Source: Alphaproteobacteria bacterium
GTDB lineage: Bacteria; Pseudomonadota; Alphaproteobacteria; JAAXGF01
Assembly: GCA_963555825.3 (NCBI GenBank)
Contig: CAUVXB020000001.1
Span: 800,001-864,000, forward strand
DNA length: 64,000 nt
Reading direction: 5' to 3'
Made by a program: the position numbers and the translations under genes. Under the pieces are notes generated by a model that saw only the letters and a program-made list of their open reading frames with translations, made no database searches and had not been told where the DNA came from. Below, piece by piece: positions 13,790 to 59,344 of the stretch; position 1 is the first letter of the stretch, and every line of letters starts with the position of its first letter.

Positions 13790-14060
13790 AGCCCGGACTT
13801 CTCACCATGGACGGGTGCGGCACGGCGGATATCGGCCGACAGGCTAGGAAAAGCTCGCCGCGCGATGCTTGCGCATCGGGCAAGCGCTTTGACGCCGCCT
13901 GTCGTCCGAGATCCGCCGCCCTTCGGGTCGCGCCGGGCGGGCCGCCCGCGGCGTCGAAGACCTTGACCGTGGCCCAGGCCACGCTCGGCGGCCTTCTCCT
14001 GGCGGAATCGGCTCCGCCCGACGCGATGACGCGCCTGTCCATGGTGAGAAATCCGGGCTA
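13790..14060 (-). mobile_element. ~270-bp structured inverted-repeat element, copy A1
   Basis: TIR agcccggaYttctcaccatggac; central gacccgaagggcggc on the minus strand at 13915-13929; close homologue of 20849-21387. Confidence 0.85.
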
Positions 14061-14094
14061 GGCTGCGCCGCGACGCGGTTCACGGGATAGCGAA

Positions 14095-15249
14095 ATGACC
14101 CAGACCATCGCGCTCGTCGTGGCGGCCGGCCGCGGGCACCGGATCGGCGGCGAGACGCCCAAGCAATATTGCGAGGTGGCTGGCCAGTCGTTGCTGCGCC
14201 ATTGCACCAGCGCCCTCGTCCGACACCCGGCCATCGACGCGGTGCGCGTGGTCATCCACCCCGACGATCGCGCCCTGTACGACGACGCGGTGGCGGGCCT
14301 CGGCCTGCTCGATCCGGTCGACGGTGGCGCGGCGCGCCAGGATTCGGTCCGTCTGGGCCTCGAAAGCCTCGCGGCAGTGCGGCCCGATCGCGTGCTGATC
14401 CATGACGCGGCGCGCCCGGCGGTCGACGCGCGGCTGGTCGATCGCGTGATCGCCGCGCTCGACGACGCACCCGGCGCTATCCCTGCCCTGCCAGTCAGCG
14501 ACAGCCTCAAGCGCGCGAACGGCGACCGGCGCATCACCGGTGTCGTCGATCGAAACGGCCTATGGCGCGCGCAGACGCCACAGGGTTTTCGATTCGCCGA
14601 TCTGCTCGACGCCCACCGCGCCGCCGCCGGCCAGGAATTTACCGACGACGCGGCGGTCGCCGATGCGGCCGGACTGACCGTCAGTTTGGTCGATGGCTCG
14701 GCCGACAACATCAAGGTCACGACAGAGGATGATTTCGCGCGCGCCGAGCGGCTGCTCGGCGGTCAGTCGGAGACCCGCGTCGGCATGGGTTTCGACGTTC
14801 ACGCGTTCGAGCCCGGCGATCACGTCGTTCTGTGCGGTGTCCGCATCGCGCACCAGGCGGGTCTCGCCGGGCACTCGGACGCCGATGTCGGCTTGCATGC
14901 GTTGGTCGACGCCGTTCTTGGCGCGCTTGGCGCCGGCGATATCGGCGAGCATTTTCCGCCGTCCGACCCAGCCTGGCAGGGCGCCGATTCGGGCCGCTTC
15001 GCGATGCATGTCCGACAGATGGTCGCGGACGCCGGCGGCGCGATCGCCAACCTCGATGTGACGCTCGCCTGCGAAGCGCCCAAGCTCGCCGTCCACCGCG
15101 CCGCGATGGTCGCCCGCGTCGCCGAATTGTTCGGCGCGCCGACATCGCGCGTCAGTGTCAAGGCGACGACGACCGAACGCCTCGGCTTCCTGGGCCGCGG
15201 CGAGGGCATTGCGGCGCTTGCCGTCGCGACTCTCAGGCTGCGCGCGTAG
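14095..15249 (+). CDS. ispDF: Bifunctional IspD/IspF
   Basis: AAGRGHR..PKQY, HDAARP, AQTPQGF, GFDVH, GHSDADV, KATTTE. Confidence 0.96.
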   Translation: MTQTIALVVAAGRGHRIGGETPKQYCEVAGQSLLRHCTSALVRHPAIDAVRVVIHPDDRALYDDAVAGLGLLDPVDGGAARQDSVRLGLESLAAVRPDRVLIHDAARPAVDARLVDRVIAALDDAPGAIPALPVSDSLKRANGDRRITGVVDRNGLWRAQTPQGFRFADLLDAHRAAAGQEFTDDAAVADAAGLTVSLVDGSADNIKVTTEDDFARAERLLGGQSETRVGMGFDVHAFEPGDHVVLCGVRIAHQAGLAGHSDADVGLHALVDAVLGALGAGDIGEHFPPSDPAWQGADSGRFAMHVRQMVADAGGAIANLDVTLACEAPKLAVHRAAMVARVAELFGAPTSRVSVKATTTERLGFLGRGEGIAALAVATLRLRA

Positions 15250-15250
15250 C

Positions 15251-15745
15251 ATGAGCGACGCGCCGGGCTTGCCGCCGGAGGTCGAGTTCTGGCGGCCGCC
15301 GACGCTCGTTGCGACCTGGTTCGGTATCGGCCTGCTGCCGTTGGCGCCCGGCACTTGGGGCTCGATTTCGGCGTTGCCGATCGCCTGGTACCTGCATGCC
15401 GCTTTCGGCGCTTGGGCGGTCGTGCTCGCCGCGGTCGTGGTGTTCGCAATCGGCTGGTGGGCGTCCGAGAATTTCGCCAAGCGCGGCTACACGTCCGATC
15501 CGTCGTATATCGTGGTCGACGAGGTCGCCGGCCAATTGGTCGCGCTCGCGCCCGTGGCGCTCGATCCGCTGTTCTACGCCATCGCCTTGATCGGTTTTCG
15601 CGTCTTCGACATCATGAAGCCCTGGCCGGTCGGTTGGGCCGACCGCGAGGTCAAGGGCGGCCTCGGCGTCATGCTCGACGACCTGCTGGCCGGCGTCTAC
15701 GTTGCGGCAATCTTGATCATCGCGACGCGGCTCAATTCCGGGTGA
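15251..15745 (+). CDS. pgpA: Phosphatidylglycerophosphatase A
   Basis: APGTWGS, DPSYIVVDEVAG, FRVFDIMKPWP, GVMLDD. Confidence 0.93.
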   Translation: MSDAPGLPPEVEFWRPPTLVATWFGIGLLPLAPGTWGSISALPIAWYLHAAFGAWAVVLAAVVVFAIGWWASENFAKRGYTSDPSYIVVDEVAGQLVALAPVALDPLFYAIALIGFRVFDIMKPWPVGWADREVKGGLGVMLDDLLAGVYVAAILIIATRLNSG

Positions 15746-15750
15746 GGTGG

Positions 15751-16257
15751 ATGGTGTTCGACGAGACGATCCACGCCAAGGCGCGACGCGTACTCGAGGC
15801 CTGCCGCGCCGCCGGCGTCATGCTGGTGACCGCGGAATCCTGTACCGGCGGGCTGGTTGCCGGCGCGCTGACCGAAATCGCCGGCTCGTCCGACGTCGTC
15901 GATCGCGGTTTCGTCACCTATTCCAACGAGGCCAAGTCCGAGATGCTCGACGTACCGACCGATTTGATCGAGGCGCAGGACGCGGTCAGCGAACCGGTCG
16001 CCCGCGCCATGGCCCAAGGCGCGCTGGCCCGCGCGGCGCCAAAGGCCCAGCTGAGCGTCGCGGTGACCGGCGTCGCCGGTCCGGGCAGCGACAGCCAGTC
16101 GAAGCCCGCCGGCCTGGTCCATATCGCCGCCGCACAAACCGGCAAGGACGTCATCCACGAGATGCGCGAATTCGGCGACGTCGGCCGTGACGCCGTCCGG
16201 CTTGCGGCGGTCGAAGTGGCGCTCGACTTGATCCTCAGGCGATTGGCCGAGGGCTGA
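15751..16257 (+). CDS. cinA: CinA C-terminal / NMN deamidase (PncC-like)
   Basis: TAESCTGG, GFVTYSNEAK, VTGVAGPG. Confidence 0.9.
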   Translation: MVFDETIHAKARRVLEACRAAGVMLVTAESCTGGLVAGALTEIAGSSDVVDRGFVTYSNEAKSEMLDVPTDLIEAQDAVSEPVARAMAQGALARAAPKAQLSVAVTGVAGPGSDSQSKPAGLVHIAAAQTGKDVIHEMREFGDVGRDAVRLAAVEVALDLILRRLAEG

Positions 16258-16267
16258 GGCGCGCAGC

Positions 16268-17131
16268 TCAATACGGGACGTCGCCCTCGATCGTCGTGCG
16301 CCACATGACGCGGCGGTACTTCTCGGCGTCGTAGGCGGTGGCGGTGTGCAGCATGCAGCGGTTGTCCCACACGACCAGATCGCCGACGCGCCACTTGTGG
16401 CGGTAGACGAATTGCGGCTGCGTGGCGTGGTCGGCCAAACGGCGGATCAGCTTGCGGCCTTCGTCTTCGGATTGCCCCTCGACCCGCTCGATCACCTCGG
16501 GCGCGACGTAGAGCGATTTGCGCCCGGTTACCGGATGGGTGCGCGCGATCGGTTGCGCAATCGGTGGCGCCTCGCGACGCTGCGCCTCGGTCATCGGCGC
16601 CCGCGTCGGGTCCTGGGTGCGCAGATGCCTGTCCATCGCTTCGAAACTGTGGATCGCGCGCAGACCGTCGATGCGCGCCTTCTCGTCATCGGGCAACGCG
16701 TCATAGGCGGCTTGCGCGCCGGCGAATTTGGTGTCGCCGCCTTCGGGCGGCGTCTCGACGCAATAGAACAGCGAGCCGAGGCTGGGCCGTGGCATGTAGC
16801 AGCGGTCGGTGTGCCATTCCTCGTCGACGTTGACGAACAGCGAGACCAGGCGCCCGTCTTCGATGACATTGCCGACGACGATGATCTCGGGATAGCCGGC
16901 GAGCTGGTATTGCCGGTCGATATGGACGTCGATCTTGCCGAAGTTGCGGCTGAAATCGATCAACGCCTCGGGCGTCAGGTGCTGGCCGCGAAACAGCAGG
17001 ACGCCGTGCGCGTGGAAGGCGTCGAGTACGGCGCCGAAGGTCGCCGGATCGACGGGGCGCGCGGTGTCGACACCGCCGATCTCGATCCCGAATGCGTCGG
17101 TCAGCGGCCGTGTTTGGATCGTTCCTGTCAT
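16268..17131 (-). CDS. TauD/TfdA-family Fe(II)/2-oxoglutarate dioxygenase
   Basis: WHTD, GGDTKF, HPVTGRKSLY, VWDNRCMLH. Confidence 0.92.
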   Translation of the reverse strand: MTGTIQTRPLTDAFGIEIGGVDTARPVDPATFGAVLDAFHAHGVLLFRGQHLTPEALIDFSRNFGKIDVHIDRQYQLAGYPEIIVVGNVIEDGRLVSLFVNVDEEWHTDRCYMPRPSLGSLFYCVETPPEGGDTKFAGAQAAYDALPDDEKARIDGLRAIHSFEAMDRHLRTQDPTRAPMTEAQRREAPPIAQPIARTHPVTGRKSLYVAPEVIERVEGQSEDEGRKLIRRLADHATQPQFVYRHKWRVGDLVVWDNRCMLHTATAYDAEKYRRVMWRTTIEGDVPY

Positions 17132-17273
17132 GACTGGCCATTCTGACAACTTCCGGCCACTTCGTCACCATTGCGTGAGGATGAGCCGCGCCGCTTGATA
17201 CGGCCGACAAAGCGGGCTTTGATGGGGCGAGCGCGAACCGACGCCGATAACGTCAGTCGAGGTCGCCAAGTCG

Positions 17274-17564
17274 TTGCGCAAGACGCTTTTGTCCAGCACC
17301 GTCGTTCCACTCGCGGTGAGCGTCGGCCTGGGACTTGCCACGGCCGGCTGCGCCACCGACCAGAACGCCGCGCCGCAAAAGAAGATCGGCTACATGTGCA
17401 GCCCGACGATGATCTGCGGCCCCAACGAGCCGTGGGGCAAGCAGTCAGCCTGCAACCCGTGCAATCCCTGCGCCGCCGCAAACCCGTGCGCCCCGTGCAA
17501 TCCCTGCGCGGTTGCCGCGGGTTGCAACCCCTGCAATCCCTGTAACCCTTGCGCGGCGAACTGA
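17274..17564 (+). CDS. Small cysteine-rich lipoprotein with CNPC repeats
   Basis: Signal peptide ending LATAGC; C-terminal tail with 10 Cys in (N/A)PC units encoded by varied synonymous codons; TTG start uncertain. Confidence 0.7.
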
Positions 17565-17602
17565 ACAGGCGCGAATATTGACGATGGTCGTGCACCTTCG
17601 CG

Positions 17603-18121
17603 TCACGGCGCACGCCCAAGACAGACGAGATCGCGATCGCGCCAGCGGCGCCGCGCGACGGTCTCGAAGCCGCACCGACGATAGAATCCGACGTTGCGCG
17701 CGCCTTCGGCGGTGACGGCATGGACACCGCTAAGGCCCTCCCCCCGGCAGTCGTCCAGGAAGCCCGCGACCAACCGACCGCCGATGCCGTGGTTGCGATG
17801 GTCCGGATGGCAATTGACGTGGAAATGCGCGGGATAGGCGTCGAATTGCGCCTCGAAGACGGCGTAGGTCGCGATGTCCGTGTAGAGGCGCTTCGCCGCC
17901 CTGCTATCACGACACCCCATCAGGTAGCCGGCGACGCGTTCGTCCGGTGTGAGACATAGATAAATTCCGTCGGGTTCGCTCTCGCGGTAATAGCCTGTCC
18001 AGGCGTCGAGGAAGCGTTGGCGCGCGTCGTCGCTGTCGAACGATTGCACCGACGACGAAAGGAAGAAAATCTCCTCGATCATCGGCCATGCGTCGGGGAC
18101 GTCGGCCAGGCCGACGATCAT
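17603..18121 (-). CDS. GNAT-family acetyltransferase
   Basis: HFHVNCHPDHRNHGIGGRLV, NVGFYRRCGF; start overlaps the SDR stop (ATGA). Confidence 0.85.
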   Translation of the reverse strand: MIVGLADVPDAWPMIEEIFFLSSSVQSFDSDDARQRFLDAWTGYYRESEPDGIYLCLTPDERVAGYLMGCRDSRAAKRLYTDIATYAVFEAQFDAYPAHFHVNCHPDHRNHGIGGRLVAGFLDDCRGEGLSGVHAVTAEGARNVGFYRRCGFETVARRRWRDRDLVCLGRAP

Positions 18122-18885
18122 CGGTGGCCGACGATGAAGCCACCGCCCGAGGCGTCGATGCAGGCGCCCGAGATGAAAGACGCGGCGTCGGAGAGCAACC
18201 ACAGGATCGGCCGGGCGATCTCGTCCGCCGTCGCGAACCGACCCATCGCGATGGTTCCGGCGATGTCCGCCTGAACCTCGGGGTCGGTGTGCCGGTCCGC
18301 GGTCATGTCGGTGATCGTCATGCCCGGGCGCACGGCGTTGACGCGGATGCCCTCGCGGCCGACCTCCTTGGCGAGACCGATGGTATAGGCGTCGACCGCG
18401 GCCTTCGAGGCGGCGTAGTGGCCCGCCCCGGCGCGCCCGCCGATCGTCGCGGCCATCGACGAGACGTTGACGATGGCGCCGCCTGTGCCGCCCTGCACCG
18501 TCGACATGCAGCGCACCGCCGCGCGGCAGCACAGCATGGTGCCCAGCACGTTGACGTTGAACAGCCTGGCGATTTCCCCCGCGTCGCTCTCGGCAGTGGT
18601 GCGCTTGCCGAACGAGACGCCGGCGTTGTTGACTAGCGCCGTCGGTGGCCCGAGCCGCGCCTCGACCTCGGCGAACAGCCGCGTGACGTCGCCGACCACC
18701 GCGACGTCGCCCTGGAATGCCGCCGCCGCCCCGCCCGCCATGACGATGTCGGCGACGACCGCTTCCGCGGCGTCGGCGCGCTCGCGATAGTTGACCGCGA
18801 CGGCATAGCCCTCGGCCGCCGCGAGCCGCGCCGTCGCCGCGCCGATGCCACGCGAGCCGCCGGTGATGAGAAGAACGCCCGTCAT
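18118..18885 (-). CDS. Short-chain dehydrogenase/reductase
   Basis: TGGSRGIG, NNAG, YAASK. Confidence 0.93.
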   Translation of the reverse strand: MTGVLLITGGSRGIGAATARLAAAEGYAVAVNYRERADAAEAVVADIVMAGGAAAAFQGDVAVVGDVTRLFAEVEARLGPPTALVNNAGVSFGKRTTAESDAGEIARLFNVNVLGTMLCCRAAVRCMSTVQGGTGGAIVNVSSMAATIGGRAGAGHYAASKAAVDAYTIGLAKEVGREGIRVNAVRPGMTITDMTADRHTDPEVQADIAGTIAMGRFATADEIARPILWLLSDAASFISGACIDASGGGFIVGHR

Positions 18886-18967
18886 GGCGCCAGCGTAGCG
18901 TCTCGATGCGTGGAGTCCAGACGTGTAAGCTGCCGCCACGAACCGAATTCATCACCGGGAGGACCCC

Positions 18968-19456
18968 ATGGCGAACAAGCCACCCATCGTCAACTTCGCC
19001 GAGGCCAAGCGCCAGACCTTCGGTCACGGCGAGGCGTTCAAGGCGACCACCGCACGCATCGGCGCCGAGCTCGGCGTCGAACAGATCGGCTGCACCCTGG
19101 TCGAGCTCGAGCCCGGCAAGCGCGCCTGGCCCTACCACCTGCACTACGCCGAGGAGGAAATGTTCGTCATCCTCGAGGGTCAGGGCACGATCCGCTATGA
19201 CGGCGAGAAATACCCGGTGCGCGAGGGTGACGTGATCTTCACGCCGACCGGACCCGGCACCGCGCATCAGATCATCAATACTTCGGACGCGCCGCTGCGC
19301 TATTTGGCGCTGAGTTCGCGCGCCGACGCCGAGATCGCCGTGTATCCCGATTCGGGCAAGATCGGCGCCTATGGCAGGACCGACGACATCTTCGCGTTCC
19401 TGGCGCCCGCGAGCGCCGAGGTCGACTATTTCGATGGCGAGGACGGCGAGCCGTAG
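18968..19456 (+). CDS. Cupin-domain protein
   Basis: WPYHLHYAEEEMFVILEG..AHQ..YPDSGK. Confidence 0.88.
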   Translation: MANKPPIVNFAEAKRQTFGHGEAFKATTARIGAELGVEQIGCTLVELEPGKRAWPYHLHYAEEEMFVILEGQGTIRYDGEKYPVREGDVIFTPTGPGTAHQIINTSDAPLRYLALSSRADAEIAVYPDSGKIGAYGRTDDIFAFLAPASAEVDYFDGEDGEP

Positions 19457-19878: not shown

Positions 19879-19896
19879 GGGCGGTTATACCAAGTA

Positions 19897-20844: not shown

Positions 20845-20848
20845 GGCC

Positions 20849-21387
20849 TAGCCCGGACTTCTCACTATGGACAGGCGCGTCATCGCGTCGGGCGGTCGCC
20901 GAGCCGCCAGGAGAAGGTCGCGGACCGTGGCCCGGGCCACGGTCAAGGCCTTCGACGCCGCGGGCGGCCCGCCCGGCGCGACCCGCAGGGCGACGGATCT
21001 CGGGCGACAGGCCGCGTCAAAGCGCTTGCCCGATGCGCGAGTACTCACTTGCACGATGCCACGGTACGTAGGACGGCCGTGCGTGGTCGTCCGGCAAGGC
21101 GCCCGGCGCGCCGTGATGCTGGGCGCATCACAAGCGCCGGGCAACGCCGCCGGCGGCCGCGCAAGGCCGCCCTGCGGGTCGCGTTTCCCGTCCCCTCGGG
21201 GCGTCGGGAACGCTCTGCGATGCCACGGCATCGCCGTCACGCCCCCGACTGCCGAGGAAACGGGAAACGCGATCCTACGTGCCGTGGAATCGTGCAAGGG
21301 AGTACTGGCATCGCGCCGCACGCTTTTCCTAGCCTGTCGTCCGATATCCACCGTGCCGCACCTGTCCATAGTGAGAAGGCCGGGCTA
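20849..21387 (+). mobile_element. Structured inverted-repeat element copy A2 (carries nested copy B)
   Basis: TIR tagccc/gg..ttctcactatggacagg; core gacccgcagggcg at 20980; right end overlaps the lpdA TAG stop. Confidence 0.85.
21040..21306 (-). mobile_element. Structured inverted-repeat element copy B, nested in A2
   Basis: TIR agtactcMcttgcacgatKccacggYacgtagga; core on the minus strand at 21166-21180; absent from copy A1. Confidence 0.85.
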
Positions 21388-22800: not shown

Positions 22801-24045
22801 CTAGAGCAGCATCGAGAGCGGTTCTTCGACGTACTTCTTGAAGACGCCGAGGAACGTGGCGCCGACCGAGCCGTCGACGACGCGGTGGTCGATCGAGAGC
22901 GTGCAGCTCATGACGGTGGCGATCGACAGCGCGTTCTCCTTGACGACCGCGCGCTGCTCTCCCGCGCCGACCGCGAGGATGGCGCCCTGCGGCGGGTTGA
23001 TGACGGCGGCGAACTCCTTGATGCCGAACATGCCGAGGTTCGAGATCGAGAAGGTGCCGCCCTGGAATTCCTCGGGCGAAAGCTTGCCCTCGCGGGCGCG
23101 TTTCGCGAGGTCTTTCATCTCGTTCGAGATGGTGGCGAGCCCCTTCTGGTCGGCGCCGCGCACGATCGGCGTGATCAGCCCGTCTGGGATTGCAACGGCG
23201 ACCGAGACGTCGACGCCCCGATAGACGCGGATCGCCGCGTCGGTCCACGACGCGTTGGCCGCCGGCACGTCGCGCAGCGCCAGCGCCGCGGCGCGGATGA
23301 CGAAGTCGTTGACCGAGATCTTGTAGGCGCCCTCGCCTTCCGGGCTGCGTTCGTTGAGCGCCTTGCGCGCGGTGAGCAGCGCGTCGATCTCGCAGTCGAC
23401 GGTGAGGTAGAAATGCGGTGCGTCGCGCTTCGATTCGGCGAGCCGGCGGGCGATCACCTTGCGCATGTTCGAATTCGGCTGCTCGGTGAAGGGCGGCATG
23501 CCCGGCGCCTCGCCGACCGGCGCCGGGGCGGCGGCTGGCGCCTTCGCCGGCACGTCGCCGGCCAGTGCGCCCTCGACGTCGCGCTTGACGACACGGCCGT
23601 GCGGTCCGCTGCCGGCCAGCGCAGCGATATCGAGCCCGGCCTGCGCCGCCATGCGACGCGCCAGCGGGCTGGCGAACGTCCGCTCGCCGTCGACGCGCGG
23701 CGCGGGCGCCGCGGCAGGCGGTGGCGCCGTCGGCGTCTCGGCCTTGGCCGGCGCGGCCTTGGCCGGCGCGGCGGAGACGTCAACGATCGCAGAGGCGTCC
23801 TCGCCCTCTTCGAGCAGGATGGCGATCGGCGTGTTGACCGCGACGCCCTCGGCGCCCTCGGCGATCAGGATATTGCCCATCGTGCCTTCGTCGACGGCCT
23901 CGACCTCCATGGTCGCCTTGTCGGTCTCGATCTCGACGATGATGTCGCCGGACACGACCGCGTCGCCTTCGCTCTTGTGCCACTTGACGAGGTTCCCTTC
24001 GGTCATGGTCGGCGACAAGGCCGGCATGAGAATTTCGATCGGCAT
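22801..24045 (-). CDS. pdhC: Pyruvate dehydrogenase E2 acetyltransferase
   Basis: Lipoyl domain [22 protein letters not shown]. Confidence 0.96.
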   Translation of the reverse strand: MPIEILMPALSPTMTEGNLVKWHKSEGDAVVSGDIIVEIETDKATMEVEAVDEGTMGNILIAEGAEGVAVNTPIAILLEEGEDASAIVDVSAAPAKAAPAKAETPTAPPPAAAPAPRVDGERTFASPLARRMAAQAGLDIAALAGSGPHGRVVKRDVEGALAGDVPAKAPAAAPAPVGEAPGMPPFTEQPNSNMRKVIARRLAESKRDAPHFYLTVDCEIDALLTARKALNERSPEGEGAYKISVNDFVIRAAALALRDVPAANASWTDAAIRVYRGVDVSVAVAIPDGLITPIVRGADQKGLATISNEMKDLAKRAREGKLSPEEFQGGTFSISNLGMFGIKEFAAVINPPQGAILAVGAGEQRAVVKENALSIATVMSCTLSIDHRVVDGSVGATFLGVFKKYVEEPLSMLL

Positions 24046-24107: not shown

Positions 24108-25481
24108 TTACGTCCGATAACAAATCTCCCTGGCCGCGGCCGCGATACCGTCGGGCTGCGGCAGCGCCAGGATCTCGAGGTTAGCGGCATAAGGCATGGG
24201 CACGTCGACACCGGCCACGCGGGCGACCGGGGCATCGAGGTAGTCGAAGGCATGGGTCATCATTTCCGCGGCGAGCTCGGCGCCGATGCCGGCGAACGGC
24301 CAGCCTTCCTCGACCGATACCAGCCGGTTGGTCTTCATGACCGAGGCGGTCAGCGTCTCGACGTCGAGCGGTCGCAGCGTGCGCAGATCGATCACCTCGG
24401 CCTCGATGCCCTCGCCCGCCAGCGTCTCGGCCGCGTGCAACGCGTACTCGACCATGCGCGAGAACCCGGCGATCGTGACGTCGCCGCCGGCGCGCACGAC
24501 CTTGGCGCGGCCGATCGGCACGGTGAAGTCGGGATCTTCGGGCACCTCGAAGCTCTGGCCGTAGAGAATTTCGTTTTCCAGGAAGATCACCGGGTTCGGG
24601 TCGCGGATCGCCGACTTCAAGAGCCCCTTGGCGTCGCCCGCCGAATAGGGCGCGACGACCTTGAGGCCCGGGCAATGCGCGTACCAGCTCGCGTAGCATT
24701 GCGAGTGCTGGGCGGCGACCCTGGCCGCCACGCCGTTCGGCCCGCGGAAGACGATCGGACAGCGCATCTGGCCACCCGACATGTAGAGCGTCTTGGACGC
24801 CGAATTGATGATCTGGTCGATCGCTTGCATGGCGAAATTGAAGGTCATGAACTCGACGATCGGACGCAAGCCACCGAACGCTGCGCCAACGCCGAGGCCG
24901 GTGAACCCCGCCTCGGTGATCGGCGTGTCGACCACGCGCTGGGCGCCGAATTCGTCCAGCAGGCCCTGGCTCACCTTGTAGGCGCCCTGATATTCGGCGA
25001 CCTCTTCGCCGATCAGGAAGACGGCCGGATCGCCACGCATCTCCTCGGCCATGGCGTCGCGCAAGGCCTCGCGCACGGTCTGGGTGGTGGTCTTTTCGTA
25101 GAACCTATCCTCATCGCTCGCCGGTGCCGCGGCGGCCTGGGGCGGCGCCGCCGGCGCCGATGAATCGGCCCGGACGGGCGTCGCGACTGGCGCGGGTGGT
25201 TGCGCGGCGACGGGTGTGTCGAGCACCGCGCTGTCCTCGCCGTCGCCGAGCAGGATGGCGATCGGCGTGTTGACCGCGACGCCCTCGGCGCCCTCGGCGA
25301 TCAGGATCTTGCCCATCGTGCCTTCGTCGACGGCCTCGACCTCCATGGTCGCCTTGTCGGTCTCGATCTCGACGATGATGTCGCCCGCCGTAACGGTGTC
25401 GCCGACGCTCTTGTGCCATTTCGCAACGTTGCCCTCGGTCATCGTCGGCGACAGCGCGGGCATGAGAATTTCTATCGGCAT
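24108..25481 (-). CDS. pdhB: Pyruvate dehydrogenase E1 beta with N-terminal lipoyl domain
   Basis: [32 protein letters not shown]. Confidence 0.96.
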
Positions 25482-26525: not shown

Positions 26526-26823
26526 GTCTACTCCCTACTCCGCCGGCGGCGCGTCGCCGGCATGGGCTCTGCGGCCCCCCGGTATTCGATCAAAGGTACG
26601 CGCAATGCGCCGGGCTTTCAAGCTGACGCCCTGAATTTGGGATGAAGTCGGAAGATGTTTCCCAATAGTGGCCGCGATCGAATTCTTTCAGCCCGCGCCA
26701 ATCTAATTGGGACAAGAGGGGGCGGGCCGCCGACCGTTCGGCCAGCTTTGATTCCATAAGATTGGCATGCGTGGCGATTGAGCGCAGGTCATCTTCACGA
26801 AGTGAAGGTGACCGCACAAATTC

Positions 26824-29362: not shown

Positions 29363-29632
29363 CTAGTGGATAGAGTCCAACATGTGGCACCCATACGATC
29401 CCATATCCCGGTTTCTCGGCAGGAGAGCGCGCGCCGGCGATGCCGAAGCATCGGCAAGGGTGTTCGACGCCCCGAGAAGCCGGGATATGGGACCCGCAGG
29501 GCGGCGTCCCAAGGCCGCCGGACGCGTTGCCCGATGCTTGTGATGCTCCAGCATCACCGCACATCGGGCGCCTTTCCGGGCGACCTTGGGACGCCGTCGT
29601 ATGGGCACCATATGTTGGATTCTATCCACTAG
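29363..29632 (+). mobile_element. 270-bp structured inverted-repeat element copy C
   Basis: ~36-bp TIR ctagtggatagaRtccaacatRtggYRcccatacga; core gacccgcagggcggc at 29491; right end contains the pyrG TAG stop. Confidence 0.88.
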
Positions 29633-36229: not shown

Positions 36230-36307
36230 CAGTTTATAACTGAGATTCGACACAAGAGATGCGCCGCATCTTCGTATTGGTTCTGAGCGTTCTCGCTGTC
36301 CTCGCTA

Positions 36308-37486
36308 GTGTCCTGATCGATAAATTGATATGATTATGTCTCTATTTGTTTTTAGGAGGCGCGATTGATGGCGAGAGTGGCGGTGACGATCTCTTTGAGC
36401 GATGACGAGCGCGCCGAATTGGAGGCGCTGTCTCGTCGTCGCAAGACGTCGCAGGGGCTTGCGCGGCGGGCTCGGATCGTCTTGGCGGCGGCGGAAGGGT
36501 TGGAGAACAAGGAGATCGCCGTTCGTCTCGAGGCGAGCGCGGACACCGTGGGCAAGTGGCGTCGCCGCTATGCGGCGGAGGGCCTCGACGGTCTGTACGA
36601 CGAACCCCGCCCCGGCGCGCCGCGTCAAATCGGCGATGACGCCATCGCGGAAGCGGTCCGGCTGACGCTGGAAGAGACGCCGCCGGACGCGACCCATTGG
36701 AGCCTTCGCTCGATGGCGCGGGCGAGCGGCCACGCGCCCTCGACCATTCATCGCATCTGGCGGGCCTTCGGCTTGCAGCCGCATCGCTCGGAGACCTTCA
36801 AGCTGTCGAGCGATCCCTTCTTCGTGGAGAAGGTCCGCGACATCGTCGGTCTGTATTTGGCGCCGCCGGATCGTGCCCTGGTTCTCTGTGTCGACGAAAA
36901 GAGCCAGATCCAGGCCCTGGACCGTTCCCAGCCCCTCTTGCCGATGCGCCCCGGGCAGGCGGAGCGGCGCAGCCACGACTACAAGCGCCACGGCACGACC
37001 TCTCTCTTCGCGGCCCTCGACATCGCCACGGGAGAGATCATCGGCAAATGTTTCCCGCGCCATCGGGCCCGAGAGTTCCGCAAATTCCTCGACCTCGTCG
37101 AGGCGAACGTCCCTGCTGATCTCGACATCCACATCGTCATGGACAACTACGGGACCCACAAGACCAAGGCGATCCGCGACTGGTTCGCCAAACGGCCGCG
37201 CTGGCAGGCCCATTTCACACCCACCAGCGCCTCCTGGCTGAACCAGGTCGAGCGCTGGTTCGGGCTGCTGACCGACAAGCAGATCAGGCGCGGCGTCCAT
37301 CGCTCCACCAAGGAGTTGGAGCGCACCATCCTCGACTACATCGACACGACAAACCAGAACCCCAAACCCTTCAAATGGACCAAATCCGCCGATGACATCC
37401 TCGGCGCCATCCAGCGCTTCTGCCTCCGAACAATCGAAATCGCTGAACAGCAGGCGAAAATCATGCGAACTTCGGAATCGGGACAC
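36308..37486 (+). mobile_element. IS630-family insertion sequence
   Basis: Ends gtgtccYgat; TA duplicated at 36306-7 and 37487-8 (CTAG target). Confidence 0.92.
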
Positions 37487-37489
37487 TAG
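36368..37489 (+). CDS. IS630 DDE transposase
   Basis: [38 protein letters not shown]. Confidence 0.95.
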
Positions 37490-40544: not shown

Positions 40545-43099
<2,555 letters not shown>

Positions 43100-43383
43100 C
43101 GCTCAACCCCCTTACAGCCGATAGGATACGCCGCATCGCAAGATTGGGGAATACCGGATGACAAAGGCAATACACGGGCAAAAAGCTGAACCACCAATGT
43201 CGGTTGTGGGTAATCGGCTCAAAGCAGACATGTTCCGCTAATGAGCAGACATTCCTGGCGTTGTTTCGGCGAATTTTCTAACTGAGAGATGATCAACACG
43301 ACCAAGGGTGCAAACGGTGAGTCGGACCCGATTTCCTTGGACACAGAATTGGCTTAATCGAAGTGTCCAAGGAGGACCGGAAC

Positions 43384-43794
43384 ATGACCGACAATTTTGA
43401 GAACAAAGTTGCTGTTGATGGGCCTGTGGTAAACGAGGGCGAGCTTGGCTCGTCCACGTTTTCCCCGGGCCAGGTTTCGCCGGCAGGCCCGCTGGGACTT
43501 GGCCAGCGGTGGACGGTGACGCGCAAGCGTGAGGTTGCCCTGCGGCTTTTGCGTGGCGAGCCGGTGGAACTTTTGTCGCGGCAGTTGGGCGTGGAGATTT
43601 TCCGGCTCGAGCAGTGGCGTGAGAAGGCGATCGCCGGGATCGATGCCTCGCTCAAGGAACGCAAGGGCGATCCGGTGAAGGCGGAACTGGACATCGCCAT
43701 GAAGCGGATCGGGGAGTTGATCATGCAGGTGGAACTGCTGGAGGCCAAGACGGAGACGTCCGGCCCTTTGGGGCGGCGGAGGTCGCGGCGATGA
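43384..43794 (+). CDS. IS3-type OrfA (HTH)
   Basis: RWTVTRKREVALRLLRGE; ATGA overlap with orfB. Confidence 0.85.
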   Translation: MTDNFENKVAVDGPVVNEGELGSSTFSPGQVSPAGPLGLGQRWTVTRKREVALRLLRGEPVELLSRQLGVEIFRLEQWREKAIAGIDASLKERKGDPVKAELDIAMKRIGELIMQVELLEAKTETSGPLGRRRSRR

Positions 43795-51895: not shown

Positions 51896-51904
51896 GGCGT
51901 GTGC

Positions 51905-53125: not shown

Positions 53126-53184
53126 ATCCGGCCCCCACTGGTATGTCTAGTGTCTGTGCACAATAGTATAGTGATCGCTCTACT

Positions 53185-53739
53185 TTGGCAAAGACGAATA
53201 CGAAGATCAAGATCGCCGCAGCCGCCAATCGGCTGTTTTCAGAGCACGGCTTCGCGGAACCGGGCGTCGAAGCGATCCGTGAAGCCGCAGATGTCAGTAT
53301 CCGGACTCTCTACAAACACTATCCATCGAAGAATGCGATGATCGTCGCCGCGCTCGCCTATCGCCACAAGGCGTATCTGGCGCATCTGCGAAAAAATTCA
53401 CCATCCGCCCCAGGCTCGGCGGCGATTGCACACCTGTTCCAGTGCGTGGCGGTATGGATGAGCGGCGATCACGCGCGCGGTTGTCTGTTCCTCCAGGCGC
53501 TCGCCGCCTATCCGGGGAGCACGACGATCATCAATGAGGTTGAGCGAAATAAAAGCGGTGTCAGGGCCGAGATTGCACGCCGTGTCCCTGCTCACAATCA
53601 AGCGATCATCCCGATACTTTTCCTTCTGCACGAAGGCGTGACGGCGGCTGCTTCTAGTGTCGGGGCGAAGGTAGCCGCAGAAAATGCGATCGCGGCGGCC
53701 AACAGGCTTCTTGCGGGAAATGACCTCCCACCAGGGTAG
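53185..53739 (+). CDS. TetR-family regulator
   Basis: N-terminal HTH IREAADVSIRTLYKHYPSK, GCLF; divergent from the M24 gene. Confidence 0.9.
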   Translation: MAKTNTKIKIAAAANRLFSEHGFAEPGVEAIREAADVSIRTLYKHYPSKNAMIVAALAYRHKAYLAHLRKNSPSAPGSAAIAHLFQCVAVWMSGDHARGCLFLQALAAYPGSTTIINEVERNKSGVRAEIARRVPAHNQAIIPILFLLHEGVTAAASSVGAKVAAENAIAAANRLLAGNDLPPG

Positions 53740-53780
53740 CATTGGCCTTTTTAAGTATCTCACGAGGTCGACTTGAGTTG

Positions 53781-53845
53781 GAGGGCCGGTTAGCGATCCG
53801 AAAGCAGCCGTTCACGTGGACGACACCAAAGGTCCGCCTCGGGTC
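53781..53845. repeat. Pair of degenerate palindromes; the second is the IS1182 target and continues at 55534-55547
   Basis: gagggccggttagcgatccgaaagcagccgttc; aaggtccgcctcgggtc|gaaagcagcggttc. Confidence 0.55.
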
Positions 53846-55529
53846 CAGACTGTGTAAGAACGTTTGCTGCGTGATCTGTACGGCGCGTCTTTGGCTTCGA
53901 TGATCCGTCGCGGCGGGTATTCCGGGATTAAGGATTTTCGCCACTCGTGCGGACCTGTCGGCCGGCTGGCGCCGGTGTGAGCTGCGATTTGGCCGGATAT
54001 GGGCGCAATTTGCGGCGCAGAGAGGCCTATGCGGTCCTCATCGCCGCGATCAGCGGGTCGATGCCCGTGATGTTCATGACGCGCTTGAGATTGTAGGCCA
54101 GCACGTGCAGGGCCATCTCGGTCCTCACCCGTTTCAGCGTCTTCGTCTGGAAATGCGTCGCGCCCATCCAGGACTTGATGGTGCCGAAGGGATGCTCGGC
54201 CGTCTCGCGCCGCCGACGCATCGCCTCCGGGTGCTCGTCGAGCCGCCTCTCGACGGCCTCGAGAACATGCTCGTGCTGCCAGCGGGTGATGCGGCGCTGC
54301 TTGGCCGTGGTGCAGCGATGCTTGATGGCGCATCCCTGACAGGCGTTGGTCCAGTAGCGCCGCATGCTCAGCCCCCTCTCCTGGCTGGTGAAGCGGTAGA
54401 CCAAACGCTCGCCGGCCGGGCAGCGATAGACATCGTCGGCGGCCAGATAGACGAAGTCCTGTTTGCCGAAGCGGCCCTTGGCCTTGGCTCCAGAGGTCAG
54501 CGGCTTAGGCAATGTGACGGTGATGCCGGCCTCATCGCAGGCCAGAATCTCCTTACCGTTGTAGTAGCCGCGATCGGCAACGACATCCAACTCGTCGGTC
54601 TCCAGAGCCGCCTTGGTCCGCTTCGCCATGGCTGAGAGCTGGGCGCGGTCGGTGCCCTGATTGGTCACCTCGTGGGCGACGATCAGGTGGTGCTTGGTGT
54701 CGACGGCGGCCTGAACGTTGTAGCCGACCACGCCGGAACCCCGGCCGCTCGTCGCCATCGAGCGGGCATCGGGATCGCTCAGAGAGATCTGCTGGTCCGG
54801 GCTCGCACGCCGCTCGACTTCAAGCGCCTTCAGGCGCCGCATCTCCTCCTTGAGGATCGCGATCTTGTCGGCCAGACGAGTCGTCTTGGTCGTGCGCGCC
54901 AGCGACGGCTCTTGCCGGTCGGCGCTGTCCAACTGGTCCAGATAGCGCGCAACGCTCTCCTCGATCTGCGCCACCCGCCGCGCCATCTTGGCCCGCGTGA
55001 AGTTCCTGTCCCGGCTGTTGACCGCCTTGAACTTCGAGCCATCGATCGCCACGCTCGCCTCGGCGAACAGCCCGAGTTGCCGGCACAGCGCGACGAACCG
55101 GGCGCAGACCTTGCGGATCGCACGGCCGTTGTCCTTGCGGAAGTCGGCGATCGTCTTGTGATCCGGCGCCAGCCGGCCGACCAGCCACATCACTTCCACA
55201 TTGCGCCCGGCCTCCCTCTCGAGCCGACGGCTCGACTGAACCCGGTTGAGATAGCCGTAGATGTAGAGCTTCAACAAATCGCAAGGATGATAGGCCGGCC
55301 TGCCGGTCGCCAGCGGCTCGACCCGGTCGAACCCGAGGCCGCCAAGATCGAGCTCATCGACGAAGACGTCGATCGCCCGAACCGGGTTGTCGTCGCCGAT
55401 CCAGTCTTCCAGGCGCTCCGGAAACAACGTGCCCTGGCTGCGATCGACACCCTCGACAAAACGCTTCATCAGACCCTCCCGCCAAAGCACGAGAGAATCA
55501 TAACACCATCGACGTTTTTACACAGTCTG
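53846..55529 (-). mobile_element. IS1182-family insertion sequence
   Basis: IR cagactgtgtaaRaacgt; 4-bp duplication GGTC at 53842-45 and 55530-33. Confidence 0.92.
54027..55469 (-). CDS. IS1182 transposase
   Basis: GRPAYHP, SSRRLE, PDHKTIADFRK, IDGSK, ADRGY, EHPFG. Confidence 0.94.
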   Translation of the reverse strand: MKRFVEGVDRSQGTLFPERLEDWIGDDNPVRAIDVFVDELDLGGLGFDRVEPLATGRPAYHPCDLLKLYIYGYLNRVQSSRRLEREAGRNVEVMWLVGRLAPDHKTIADFRKDNGRAIRKVCARFVALCRQLGLFAEASVAIDGSKFKAVNSRDRNFTRAKMARRVAQIEESVARYLDQLDSADRQEPSLARTTKTTRLADKIAILKEEMRRLKALEVERRASPDQQISLSDPDARSMATSGRGSGVVGYNVQAAVDTKHHLIVAHEVTNQGTDRAQLSAMAKRTKAALETDELDVVADRGYYNGKEILACDEAGITVTLPKPLTSGAKAKGRFGKQDFVYLAADDVYRCPAGERLVYRFTSQERGLSMRRYWTNACQGCAIKHRCTTAKQRRITRWQHEHVLEAVERRLDEHPEAMRRRRETAEHPFGTIKSWMGATHFQTKTLKRVRTEMALHVLAYNLKRVMNITGIDPLIAAMRTA

Positions 55530-55664
55530 GGTCGAAAGCAGCGGTTCGGCATTAGGCCTTGGTGCCCTGCAATCGTCCCCTCCCGGCCCGAACCAGGCCT
55601 TCATTAAACCGATTCCCCCTCGCGCCTCCCCTTGACAGCCGGGCGACCATCGTGTTTTCTCCCT

Positions 55665-55720
55665 TCAGCGCCGATTTGACCGATCAGCTTGCGGGCGCTT
55701 AACAAATACGGCTAAAGCGA
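55665..55720 (+). ncRNA. SAM-II (SAM-alpha) riboswitch
   Basis: GCGCCGATTTGACCG..TTGCGGGCGCTTAACAAAT..GCTAAAG resembles the SAM-II pseudoknot consensus; TTGACA at 55632; upstream of a sulfur assimilation gene. Confidence 0.8.
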
Positions 55721-55724
55721 TGGC

Positions 55725-55756
55725 AACCGCCACGCCCCGCCGTGGCGGTTTTTTTA
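55725..55756 (+). terminator. Intrinsic terminator directly after the riboswitch aptamer
   Basis: aaccgccacg-loop-cgtggcggtt followed by a T run. Confidence 0.8.
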
Positions 55757-55832
55757 TGCCACGGCACCGATAGCGCCCGCGAGCGACGATCGACCGGCCG
55801 AACCGAATTGTGCTCTCGGGGAGACCGCTACC

Positions 55833-56603
55833 ATGTACGACGACCGCCTCGCCCTGCCCGGCCCGCTGCCCTATTCACCGCTCGATGACCCTGCCGCCGC
55901 GCGCGCCCAGGCGCTGAGCAACACATACGGCCATCTCGATGCGGTCGCGCTGCTCGAGGTCATGATCGGGCGCGAGTTTCCCGGCCGGATCGCGCTGGTC
56001 TCGTCATTCGGCGCCGAGTCGGCGCTGCTCTTGGACCTGGTCGCCGGCATCGACCGCGCCACGCCGGTGATCTTCCTCGACACCGGCAAGCTGTTCCCCG
56101 AGACGCTGGCCTACCGCGATGAATTGGTCGATTGGCTCGGCCTCGGCGACGTTCGCGCCATTCAGCCCCCGGCCGACGTACTCGCGGCGCACGACCCCGG
56201 CGGTGATCTCTGGCGGCGCGATCCGGACGCCTGCTGCGCATTGCGCAAGGTCGCACCGCTGGCCGGGGCGCTGGCCGGGTTCGACGCCTGGATCACCGGG
56301 CGCAAGCGCCACCACGGCGCCGCGCGGGCCACGCTCGACACCATCGAGGCGGTCGACGGGCGCGTTAAGATCAACCCGCTCGCCGATTGGTCGGCCGCGC
56401 GTATCGAGGCCGGGATCGCCGCCCGCGGCTTGCCGCGCCATCCGTTGCAGGACGCTGGCTACGCGTCGATCGGCTGCGTCACCTGCACGCGACCGCTCGA
56501 GCGCGGCGAGGCGGCGCGCGCGGGCCGCTGGGCGGGCCTCGCCAAGACCGAGTGCGGCATCCACCGTGCGCCCAGGGACACACGACCGGATGTGGCGGAC
56601 TGA
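55833..56603 (+). CDS. cysH: (P)APS reductase
   Basis: SSFGAES, LDTGKLFPET, CCALRKV, SIGCVTCT, KTECGIH. Confidence 0.93.
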   Translation: MYDDRLALPGPLPYSPLDDPAAARAQALSNTYGHLDAVALLEVMIGREFPGRIALVSSFGAESALLLDLVAGIDRATPVIFLDTGKLFPETLAYRDELVDWLGLGDVRAIQPPADVLAAHDPGGDLWRRDPDACCALRKVAPLAGALAGFDAWITGRKRHHGAARATLDTIEAVDGRVKINPLADWSAARIEAGIAARGLPRHPLQDAGYASIGCVTCTRPLERGEAARAGRWAGLAKTECGIHRAPRDTRPDVAD

Positions 56604-56870
56604 TCGCGTGGTTGCGGTTGTGGGTAACCTTGGCTGCGATGGCGGACTGGCTCCAGGCGTGTAGCCGCCGCAAGAAACAGGAACTCGGCATCGCCTGAGC
56701 GGCGCGGTTACGCCCCAATAGGTTGATCCCGGCAAGCCATGTCGCGGCATCGCGCCGCGCTTGCACATCAGCATCATAGCCGTCACAATCGCACCGCCGG
56801 ACCGACGCCAGGGCGCCATGTCCGCCCGCCCGATCCGCGCATGCCTCCCAACTGTCGTCGGACCTCGCCC

Positions 56871-57770
56871 ATGCCTCGTCATTCTGCCTGCGCCTACGCG
56901 CTCGCCGCCACGCTCGCGCTCGCCCCCTTGCCGGCGTCGGCGCAGCAAGCCCAACCCGAACCGGGACAGGACCCGGTCGTCGCCACCGTCGCCGGCGACG
57001 CGATTCGCCTTTCCGAGGTCGTCGATTCCAAGTCGCAGCTTCCCCAGCAGTATCAGTCGATGCCGATGGAGGCCATGTTTCCGGCCCTGGTCGAACGGGT
57101 GATCGACATACGGCTGGTCGCCCGGGAAGCGCGCGCCAACGGCATCGCCGACGATCCGGACGTGCGGCGCGAGCTGGCGCAGATCGAAAATCAGATCATC
57201 AGCCAGGTCTTTCTGACGCGCCATATCGACGCGATGATTACCGATGAGGAAGTGCAGGCACGCTACGACGAACACATTGCAGCCCTGCCGCCAGACGAGG
57301 AGATAAGCGCGCGCCATATCCTGCTCGTGACGGAAGAGGACGCGCTGGCGGTCATCGCCAGCCTCGGCGAAGGCGCCGACTTCATCGAGCTCGCCGCCGA
57401 AAAGTCGATCGGCCCCTCGGCCGACCGGGGTGGCGACATCGGCTATTTCGGCCGCGGCAACGTCGTGCCCGAATTCGCCGATGCCGCCTTCGCGCTCGAG
57501 CCCGGACAGACCTCCGAGACACCGGTGCAAAGCGAATTCGGTTGGCACGTCATCAAGGTCGATGACCGACGCGCCGTGGCGCCGCCTTCACTGGAAGAGA
57601 TGCGCGAGCAGTTCGTCACGGAAATCTCGCAACAGCTCATCGCCGAGCTGATCGGCGAGCTGCGCGACGCGGCGGCGATAGAGCGATTCAACATGGACGG
57701 CTCGCCGAAGACCGAGCCCGAACCGGCCGCCGAACCGGAAAGCCAACCCGACGCCGAACCCGCGCCCTAG
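56871..57770 (+). CDS. Parvulin-type peptidyl-prolyl isomerase (PrsA/PpiC-like)
   Basis: Signal peptide, ARHILL, GGDIGYF, PEFA, SEFGWHVIK. Confidence 0.92.
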   Translation: MPRHSACAYALAATLALAPLPASAQQAQPEPGQDPVVATVAGDAIRLSEVVDSKSQLPQQYQSMPMEAMFPALVERVIDIRLVAREARANGIADDPDVRRELAQIENQIISQVFLTRHIDAMITDEEVQARYDEHIAALPPDEEISARHILLVTEEDALAVIASLGEGADFIELAAEKSIGPSADRGGDIGYFGRGNVVPEFADAAFALEPGQTSETPVQSEFGWHVIKVDDRRAVAPPSLEEMREQFVTEISQQLIAELIGELRDAAAIERFNMDGSPKTEPEPAAEPESQPDAEPAP

Positions 57771-57783
57771 CGGCTCACTGCCG

Positions 57784-58980
57784 TCAGACCGCACGCGCCG
57801 CCCGGTTGCGCACCGGGTGGCGGTTGGCGTCCTTGTAGCCGAGCGCGTCCTCGGCAATCAGCACGCGCTGGACGTTGGGCGTGCCCTCGCCGACGTTGAG
57901 CATGTTGACGTAGGCGGTGATCTTCGAAACCGGGTATTCGTCGGCCAACGCGTAGCCGCCATAGATTTCGGCGACAGCCTGCGCCGCCTGCTTGGCGACC
58001 TGGCCGGCGAAATACTTGGCGCGCGACGAGGCGCGGGTCGACGGCGCGCCCCGGTCCATCGTCCATGCCAGGCGCTGCACCATCAACCGCGCTGCCTCGA
58101 CACCCACCGTCATGTCGGCGATCGGCTGCTGGACCATTTGGCGCCGTCCGATCGGCTGGCCGCCGACGACGCGCTCGGCCGCGTAGGCGCAGGCATGGTC
58201 GAGACACGCCTGGGCCAGGCCGACGAGCCGCGCGGAGACCGTCAGCCGACCGTACTCAAGCGCGTTCATGGCAATCTTGAAGCCCTCGCCCTCCGCGCCC
58301 AAGCGGTTCGCCACCGGCACCGCGAAACCGTCGAGGAAGACCGCGCAGCTGCACAGCGACTTCGACAGCCCGGTCATCGGGATCGGTGTCGCCGAGAAGC
58401 CGGGCGCCGCCTTCGGCTCGACGATGAAGGCGGTGATGCCCGCATGGCCGGCATCCGGGTCGGTCTTGGCGAACAGCAGCCCGGTGTCGCAGGCGTCGGC
58501 GAAGGTGATCCACTGCTTGGCGCCGTCGAGCCGGTATGCCTCGCCGTCGCGCCGCGCCCGCGTCTGCATCGCGCCCGCCGGGTCCGAGCCGCCGCCTGGT
58601 TCGCTGAGCGCGAACATGCCGACGCGGCGGCCGGCGATCAGGTCGGGCACGAAGCGTTCGATCTGCGCGTCGCTGCCCCAGTTGTAGATGGTGAACGGGC
58701 AGGTCATCGCCTGCAGGTTCATGGCATAGCCGAACTCGGGCGCCAGCCGGGAAATCTCCTCGGCGACCGTGGCGACGGCGAGGAAGCCCATGGCGCTGCC
58801 GCCGAGGCGCTCGGGAAAGGCGGCGCCGAACAAGCCCGCGGCGCCCATCTTCTCGATGATCGGCCCGGGGAACGCGCCGCGCGCCTCATAGTCGGCCATC
58901 GCCGGCGCGATCTCGGTCTCGACGAAGCGCGCGACGCTGTCGCGGACCTGGGCGATCTCATCGGGCAGAGTGAAGTCCAT
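57784..58980 (-). CDS. Acyl-CoA dehydrogenase
   Basis: ALSEPGGGSD, GAKQWIT, GAEGEGFK, YGGY, EGTPNVQR. Confidence 0.93.
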   Translation of the reverse strand: MDFTLPDEIAQVRDSVARFVETEIAPAMADYEARGAFPGPIIEKMGAAGLFGAAFPERLGGSAMGFLAVATVAEEISRLAPEFGYAMNLQAMTCPFTIYNWGSDAQIERFVPDLIAGRRVGMFALSEPGGGSDPAGAMQTRARRDGEAYRLDGAKQWITFADACDTGLLFAKTDPDAGHAGITAFIVEPKAAPGFSATPIPMTGLSKSLCSCAVFLDGFAVPVANRLGAEGEGFKIAMNALEYGRLTVSARLVGLAQACLDHACAYAAERVVGGQPIGRRQMVQQPIADMTVGVEAARLMVQRLAWTMDRGAPSTRASSRAKYFAGQVAKQAAQAVAEIYGGYALADEYPVSKITAYVNMLNVGEGTPNVQRVLIAEDALGYKDANRHPVRNRAARAV

Positions 58981-59052
58981 CGCGGGGTTCCGGCCGGTTT
59001 TTGCGTCTGGCAAAGCTAGCACAATCCGCGTATACCGCCGTCCGGTTATGTA

Positions 59053-59316
59053 ATACCAAGGACCAGTGATAAAGACCCATAGAGATCGCGTCCGCTTTTC
59101 GCCGGTGAGGCAAGGGAGCCGCGGGCGATGCAGCGCATCGGCTAGGCTTCCTGACGCCCTCCGGCGATAAGCGGACGCGACCCGAAGGGCGGTTTGCCGA
59201 GGCTCTCGGACGTCGTTGCGCCCGTCTTGCGATGCGCTGCATCGCCGCGACGGGCGCGCCTAGCCGAGAACCACGGCAAGCCGTCTCCATGGGTCTTTAT
59301 CACTGTTCCTTGGTAT
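59053..59316 (+). mobile_element. 264-bp structured inverted-repeat element copy D
   Basis: TIR ataccaaggaMcagtgataaagacccatRgaga; core gacccgaagggcgg at 59179; extra 19-bp TIR arm at 59318-59336. Confidence 0.88.
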
Positions 59317-59344
59317 AATACCAAGGAACAGTGATAGGACAGTC

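Follow-up and report, generated by a model that had tools for sequence, protein, structure and literature searches.

A probable IS630-mobilised superfamily of miniature elements with a conserved two-armed interior in an alphaproteobacterial genome

A 64,000-nt stretch from the genome of an Alphaproteobacteria bacterium (assembly GCA_963555825.3, contig CAUVXB020000001.1, positions 800,001 to 864,000; hereafter the window) contains several non-coding elements of 264-271 bp. [quoted passage not shown] The end sequences, their flanks and a match to IS630 ends point to one superfamily of MITEs that is probably moved in trans by DDE transposases of the IS630/Tc1-mariner type. The interiors of MITEs are usually treated as filler between transposase-binding ends. 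What is unusual here is a conserved, compensating, two-armed interior common to several classes of ends, together with the site-specific nesting of one class, B, within another, A.

Results

Five copies, belonging to four classes designated A to D, were located in the window, all of them where a first-pass annotation made from the sequence alone had placed them. An A-class element of 271 bp occupies positions 13790-14060 on the minus strand (minimum free energy (MFE) -191.4 kcal/mol, z -11.3), with its core at 13917-13929 reading GACCCGAAGGGCG on that strand. A second A copy, in the opposite orientation, extends over 20849-21387 and is split by a B-class element of 267 bp (21040-21306, minus strand; core 21168-21180; MFE -202.2, z -13.6), which is nested in the tip loop of its arm 2. 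The first part of this A copy (20849-21039, plus strand) comprises a terminal repeat, arm 1, the core (20980-20992) and arm 2 as far as the tip loop, and the remainder (21307-21387, plus strand) comprises the 3' half of the arm-2 tip, the arm-2 stem and a terminal repeat. A repeat finder matched the two A copies over 196 nt (13868-14063 with 20846-21041) and 79 nt (13790-13868 with 21308-21386), both at 90% complementarity. The C-class element (29363-29632, plus strand; core 29491-29503; MFE -192, z -15.4) measures 270 bp, has CTAG on both sides and holds 156 nt in common with B at 76%. The D-class element (59053-59316, plus strand; core 59179-59191; MFE -187, z -14.7) is 264 bp long, has ends ATACCAAGG...CCTTGGTAT and is more distant from the other window elements. 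One base past it, a lone D-class terminal repeat of 19 nt was read directly (59318-59336, plus strand); it is probably the stump of a second insertion, and lone D-type ends also adjoin other D copies of the genome in the BLAST listing. The terminal repeats of the window elements are 34-38 nt long and 84-91% complementary.

Single-strand folding gave a common architecture for classes A to D, consisting of a terminal helix of about 35 pairs, an arm of about 95 nt, a 3-pair CCC-GNA-GGG hairpin at the midpoint and a second arm of about 95 nt. Free energies of the four window elements ranged from -187 to -202 kcal/mol, with z between -11.3 and -15.4, and in each case none of 200 shuffles folded equally well. 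The symmetric fold around a central core described in the first-pass annotation was thereby recovered.

Covariation was analyzed in an alignment of 18 elements, namely the four from the window, a near-consensus copy of each of A to D, two of a fifth class, E (see below), and eight from five further genomes within the family (G004, G005, G006, G007 and G010). RNAalifold returned a consensus of 97 pairs, 29 of them in the closing helix, with an energy of -143.3 kcal/mol of which the covariation term contributed -21.0. Standard pairs filled 92.2% of the cells, versus 67.7% after shuffling; 74 of the 97 pairs were altered on both sides, versus 55, and so were 411 cells, versus 125. None of these three values was reached in 500 shuffles, and the claim that pairing is maintained through sequence change was thus upheld. 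Kinship among sequences can beat shuffles even without structure, but the number of pair types argues against it as the cause of the signal, and so do slid controls, in which moving the 3' partner by 1-3 columns left 33-43% of cells paired and 25-37 pairs altered on both sides. The two sides of the terminal helix are, by definition, an inverted repeat; with this helix left out, the pairs altered on both sides still numbered 45 of 68 in the arms and linker.

Mean identity in this alignment was 0.556 for the terminal helix columns (0 of 58 invariant), 0.754 for the arm-stem columns (31 of 136 invariant) and 0.739 for the unpaired interior columns (14 of 61 invariant). The arm stems had been thought to be swapped wholesale between classes. 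However, with arm-stem columns 75% identical in the 18 elements, and B and C interiors 76% identical, the interiors of all classes are homologous and moderately conserved, with compensatory change in the arms. By contrast, a set of motifs at tips, bulges and junctions was invariant across classes: AGG and GACGCC in the arm-1 internal loop, GCGATGC...GCATCG at the tips (which read GATGC-N3-4-GCATC), the core GACCCGNAGGGCG, CCT(A/T)GCC in arm 2, and the GATC and GCCGTC junctions. The core, the GATC/CATC junction and the GCCGT junction of the first-pass description are all present.

Pairing of this kind might also be kept by mechanism rather than by selection. Quasi-palindrome correction is known to occur, and template switching or intrastrand repair that copied changes between arm halves would keep neutral interiors paired, in keeping with stems and loops that are conserved about equally and with strands that pair equally (see below). 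Such repair leaves unexplained why the same architecture, the same arm lengths and the 14 invariant unpaired columns recur in five classes and many genera, and the asymmetric internal loops have not themselves been corrected away. This origin is considered quite improbable.

The whole genome (6.04 Mb in two contigs, C1 and C2; 65% G+C) was searched for further copies. BLAST recovered, as full-length copies, 33 solo A, 18 B, 11 C and 42 D elements, and the A copies beyond the 33 solo ones carry a nested B. A profile built on all copies detected class E, with two copies that have ends GGAGCCTATC... and the same fold. All five classes are short, non-coding and multi-copy, and the pattern "core, 36-52 nt, GATGC-N3-6-GCATC" had 56 matches in the genome, all 56 within full-length copies. 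Only one of 86 copies fell inside a called gene (A 0/33, C 0/11, D 1/42), according to a crude gene call by third-position G+C that takes in about 55% of the genome. Collections of plasmids and phages held no match to A, to D or to the composite of B within A (A::B).

Class D varies in length, with 262-265 nt in 24 copies, 282-283 in 13 and 299-300 in five. An 18-bp insert in arm 2, CGCCCGCTATCAGACTGG, defines a D subfamily (C1:158745-159026 and 12 others), and at C2:941111-942588 an IS630b copy lies inside this insert with a TCA duplication. In seven D copies the arm-2 tip loop contains an insert of 21 bp; one of these inserts (locus C1:169401-171500) in turn harbours an IS110-family element with a 340-aa transposase, with tandem repeats of about 100-130 nt at its left end. 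Targeting of hairpin tips by IS110 was considered and rejected, as the other five near-identical IS110 copies are located elsewhere; the case is one of insertion into a pre-existing 21-bp tip variant.

The same genome has an extreme load of insertion sequences (ISs), with about 282 repeat units of at least 1.4 kb, 81 of them of one IS21-like type. At least five IS630 types are resident, including 62 intact copies of IS630a and 58 of IS630b, nearly all of which are 100% identical, plus further types. A full IS630a stands in the window at 36305-37489 on the plus strand (1185 bp including CTAG flanks; both ends located), with its transposase reading frame at 36365-37489. Pfam DDE_3 and helix-turn-helix (HTH) domains were found in the two IS630 types checked, for IS630a on a copy identical to that of the window.

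Members of the IS630 family are known to duplicate a 2-bp TA. Intact IS630a copies are flanked by CTA on the left and TAG on the right in 61 of 62 cases. Class A copies have CTAG on the left in 19/33 and, on the right, CTAG in 17/33 or CTAA in 7/33; for class C, CTAG precedes the element in 8/11. The same 3-bp TNA is found on both sides of 45 of the 58 IS630b copies (e.g. C2:36622-37700) and of 18 of the 42 D copies, most of the remaining D copies still having TNA on each side, and of its terminal sequence D has only ATACCA in common with IS630b, c and d. In their flanks, A and C thereby agree with IS630a (CTAG/TA) and D agrees with IS630b (TNA). IS630b, with these 3-bp flanks, may be a subgroup with a different stagger.

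Terminal repeats had been described as unrelated sequences. This is right between classes and wrong within them, since the repeat of each class is conserved across its copies and even in other genera. For class C, a similar IS630 end exists in two related genomes, G412 and G413: 24 of the first 30 bases agree between the C-class end and the left end of the G412 element. These two genomes, both of which contain the MITEs, have IS630-family elements of 1.14-1.16 kb whose transposases are 47-50% identical to that of IS630a. A search for autonomous partners, by terminal repeats at IS-like spacing, returned only elements interrupted by other ISs (IS5/IS1182-like, IS110-family and IS630b, one each). 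The abundant "25%" IS630 type of G412 was rejected as a partner of A, its ends being of the CTAGTGTCC type and not A-type.

Nesting of B within A was found to be recurrent and precise. Of 18 B copies, 16 occupy one identical nucleotide position within the loop at the arm-2 tip of an A copy, with the junction GATGCGCG-B-GGCATC in 15 and GATGCGCG-B-AGCATC in one. Solo A copies have the tip GATGC-GCAA-GCATC in 16 cases, the loop GACA in six and other loops in the rest. A copies thus exist both filled with B and empty, which is proof of insertion for B. Across the 16 composites the mean difference is 8.0% between A parts (solo A, 8.5%) and 2.95% between B parts, without correlation between the two sets of distances (Mantel r -0.11, p 0.74); amplification of a single A::B composite was rejected on these grounds. 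Gene conversion among A copies as the route by which B spread was rejected too, because diversity among 14 composites, counted without two that carry an extra 40-bp insert, matched that of 30 solo A copies in every bin (e.g. 0.124 vs 0.106 at +8..25) except the 8 nt beside the junction. Composites and solo copies alike contain variants of A, for example an indel of GTGGCC at 7 nt distance from the junction. Absence of linked similarity thus rules against both a single amplified composite and gene conversion, and the simplest reading is that B is a young family which entered old A copies many times, independently and site-specifically, at a single site.

Three A copies (solo A at C1:608511-608824; A::B at C2:1554032 and C2:2908933) have a further insert of about 40 bp (…GCGAAGCCGGAGCTTCGCTTCGGCGAAGGCAGG…) beside the arm-2 tip, a further case of a small insertion in or close to the tip of a hairpin.

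The two strands of the elements were compared in 97 copies of this genome, where they folded within 4 kcal/mol of each other, at about -185. Class means for the top and bottom strands were -185.7/-187.5 for A, -204.3/-202.1 for B, -185.7/-181.9 for C and -178.2/-178.7 for D, and G-U counts in the same copies favoured neither strand consistently. The symmetry was likewise observed in 49 copies of other genomes. Element orientation between same-direction genes was unbiased (A 6 vs 12, C 5 vs 5, D 15 vs 11), and the cumulative GC skew was too flat to place origin and terminus for an assessment of replication-strand bias.

The first-pass annotation had offered a mobile structured RNA as one interpretation, and a structured RNA gene or cis-regulatory RNA carried on transposon ends, its fold selected as RNA, would account for covariation of RNA-like strength and for the G-U pairs present in arm 1 of B and C. 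The equivalence of the strands in stability and G-U count, here and elsewhere, and the unbiased orientation speak against such an RNA. Rfam 15 had no match to the elements at gathering score and, in a comparison of five elements at E up to 1, yielded miRNA-precursor noise alone (E 0.17-0.75), and the one A copy scanned contained no terminator-like or promoter-like site. Contigs of a metatranscriptome run touch the elements, but the RNA contigs break at the repeat ends, and the depth in RNA run X15 cannot show a transcript. An RNA function for the interior is therefore very improbable. The only gathering-level Rfam match in the window was a plus-strand SAM_alpha riboswitch at 55658-55736 (38.1 bits; gathering score 36).

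Public sequencing runs contain the region, and their contigs stop within about 30 nt of element boundaries; the elements explain why short-read assemblies of the organism break at these places. In keeping with a dispersed repeat, summed depth in element bins was about 15-25 times the flanking value. These contigs showed no empty site. A joint that skips the A interior (13831 to 14038, side 24) was rejected as an empty site, being most simply an assembly jump between complementary ends. For window positions 58700-59700, at least half of the sampled words occur in each of fifteen public runs from several studies; two of the DNA runs, X7 and X11, are labelled sponge metagenome.

Recognition by structure instead of by ends was the other interpretation put forward initially. 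In this view the elements would be read as folded single-stranded or cruciform DNA, in the manner of integron attC sites, REPINs or the ends of IS200/IS605, and the terminal repeats would be merely a closing helix. Pairing that is kept while the sequence changes fits this, as does the placing of the invariant bases in tips, bulges and junctions. Against it stand terminal sequences that are kept class by class across genera, flanks that obey IS630 target rules, and a C end that matches an IS630 end. Single-strand systems usually have a functional strand, and here both strands fold equally. Moreover, the genome has three genes that match Y1_Tnp, and a search with the element profile found no element within about 1.5 kb on either side of any of the three. 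Recognition of this sort is unlikely for the elements as a whole. Part of the idea is kept alive by B, which has entered one hairpin-loop nucleotide 16 times, a fixed target with neither TA nor a duplication.

The distribution of the elements was surveyed in 41 genomes by BLAST. A/B-like sequence was found in 13 of them, this one included; nine of the 13 are among the 12 further genomes that belong to its family. D-like sequence was found in 7 of the 41, six of these being among the same 12. In a set of bacterial and archaeal genomes, one for each species, the exact pattern matched at least 97 stretches, most of them in metagenome-assembled genomes labelled Alphaproteobacteria, Rhodospirillales, Kiloniellaceae, Thalassospiraceae, Magnetovibrionaceae, Inquilinaceae or Tistlia. 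The 80 loci returned gave 81 matches. In 52 of these, at least 18 of 22 terminal-repeat positions are complementary, with ends that fall into classes A, B, C and D and flanks that read TA or CTAG; the weaker matches include some too near a contig end to score and likely chance matches in other phyla. When the class was sampled evenly, 4 of 401 genomes matched, with 56 matches here and 1, 3 and 1 elsewhere, and a reversed-pattern control gave 0 everywhere.

A midpoint-rooted FastTree phylogeny of the interiors grouped copies largely by end class. C was nested among B-like interiors and D-type ends appeared on two separate interior groups, three copies that a crude rule had labelled otherwise (L044, L051 and L084) being D-type by their ends. 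This tree, drawn without support values, provides a hint that ends may have been exchanged between interiors.

Other repeats were noticed in the window. A 109-bp repeat at 26690-26798, which folds at -41.5 kcal/mol, has 131 BLAST hits in the genome and a summed contig depth about 20-30 times that of its flanks, and some contigs join it directly to an A-class end. Three pairs of direct repeats are unrelated to the elements studied: 43318-43617 with 63172-63471 (300 nt, 100%), 40545-40820 with 40914-41189 (276 nt, 93%) and 23784-24045 with 25220-25481 (262 nt, 88%).

Discussion

The reading of these elements as IS630-mobilised MITEs suggests a modular organization. The outer 25-30 nt or so of the terminal repeat is a class-specific module, A to E, that would be read by a particular IS630 lineage, and the inner 195 nt or so, made up of arm 1, the CCC-GNA-GGG linker and arm 2 with their fixed bulge motifs, is a module homologous in all classes. 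The interior may be kept by selection on the element itself if efficient mobilisation is limited to copies whose arms can still form an extruded cruciform within duplex DNA or, in single-stranded DNA, fold back. Extrusion would join two ends that lie 265 bp apart in one synaptic complex. Replacement of the outer repeat, or its drift towards recognition by another transposase, could give rise to new classes.

Several observations weigh against this reading. The IS630 element with a C-type end was seen only in other genomes, and neither this genome nor the IS630a relatives of four other genomes yielded a full-length element whose ends are of type A, B or E. A search for paralogous empty sites of A, C and D found matches elsewhere for 2 of 86 flank pairs, neither of them clean; for these three classes, then, it is from the flanks that we infer mobility and TA duplication and, TA being palindromic, the duplication is inseparable from the repeat without an empty site. 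The 16 insertions of B into A took place with no TA at the site and no duplication. Loops were not better conserved than stems (0.739 for unpaired interior columns vs 0.754 for arm stems in the 18-element alignment) and, with no overall contrast between them, the case for selected loop motifs is made by the 14 invariant unpaired columns alone. Finally, the role of the fold in synapsis is something we infer only.

A less conventional possibility, which is put forward tentatively, gives the four-way interior a larger part. It would be a cis-acting module read, when extruded or single-stranded, by the transposition machinery or by a host junction-binding protein, so that its shape would be needed to move, and the end module would be swapped to parasitise successive IS630 lineages; B would insert site-specifically into the GATGC-loop-GCATC tip, with neither TA nor duplication. 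If this were true, B would represent a structure- or sequence-guided mode of insertion not known for IS630-type elements.

Mobilisation of MITEs by IS630 has precedents. RUP of Streptococcus pneumoniae is probably moved by IS630-Spn1 (PMC2229807), and MITEEc1_IS630 is named as such (bioRxiv 10.1101/2024.01.18.576219). Like the present elements, these are short, non-coding and multi-copy; their ends are similar to those of an IS630-family element and their insertion is at TA, features that are probable here too. RUP is, however, a single stem-loop of 107 bp, unlike the 265-bp four-way fold seen here, and bacterial MITEs are described in the same source as single long stem-loops of 100-200 bp (PMC2229807). 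The present elements also have five end classes on one interior and reside in DNA of 65% G+C rather than in A+T-rich DNA. The Correia/NEMIS elements of Neisseria resemble them in being TA-flanked MITEs, with terminal repeats of about 24-26 bp and transcripts with long hairpins (PMC2229807), and differ in having 107-155 bp, one stem and an IHF site, without arms or linker; no family of end classes on a common interior is described for them.

Overlap with CIR had been suggested in the first-pass annotation. CIR is an alphaproteobacterial intergenic repeat, with two predicted arms, a linker and a fold conserved between species (PMC2229807). By the published description it has about 110 bp, no closing stem and GANTC in a terminal loop (PMC2229807), which sets apart the 265-bp elements studied here, with their terminal stem of about 35 bp, tips of GATGC-N3-4-GCATC and TA or CTAG at the ends; the suggested overlap is not borne out by that description. 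A search of the full-text literature, judged by titles and the openings of abstracts, found no description of such elements. REPIN/RAYT systems and attC sites are also mobile or recombining DNA in which fold rather than sequence is conserved, but their length is smaller and a Y1/HUH or tyrosine enzyme recognises them on a single strand. A RAYT gene is flanked by its REPINs, whereas here no element lies within about 1.5 kb of any of the three Y1 genes and the ends obey IS630 rules. Plant Stowaway MITEs, which are mobilised by Tc1/mariner transposases, target TA, are not deletion copies of their transposase source and have internal sequence that is reported to tune transposition; we know of no conserved multi-arm fold with covariation in these eukaryotic elements.

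The interior is thus the conserved part of the present MITEs, a two-armed cruciform kept through dozens of compensatory changes, on five end classes and in many uncultured alphaproteobacterial lineages. It makes testable the question of whether the shape of the DNA between the ends helps a short transposon to join them, and that of how a non-autonomous element changes the transposase it exploits. The repeated, precise entry of B into one loop nucleotide of A provides a natural example of targeted insertion.

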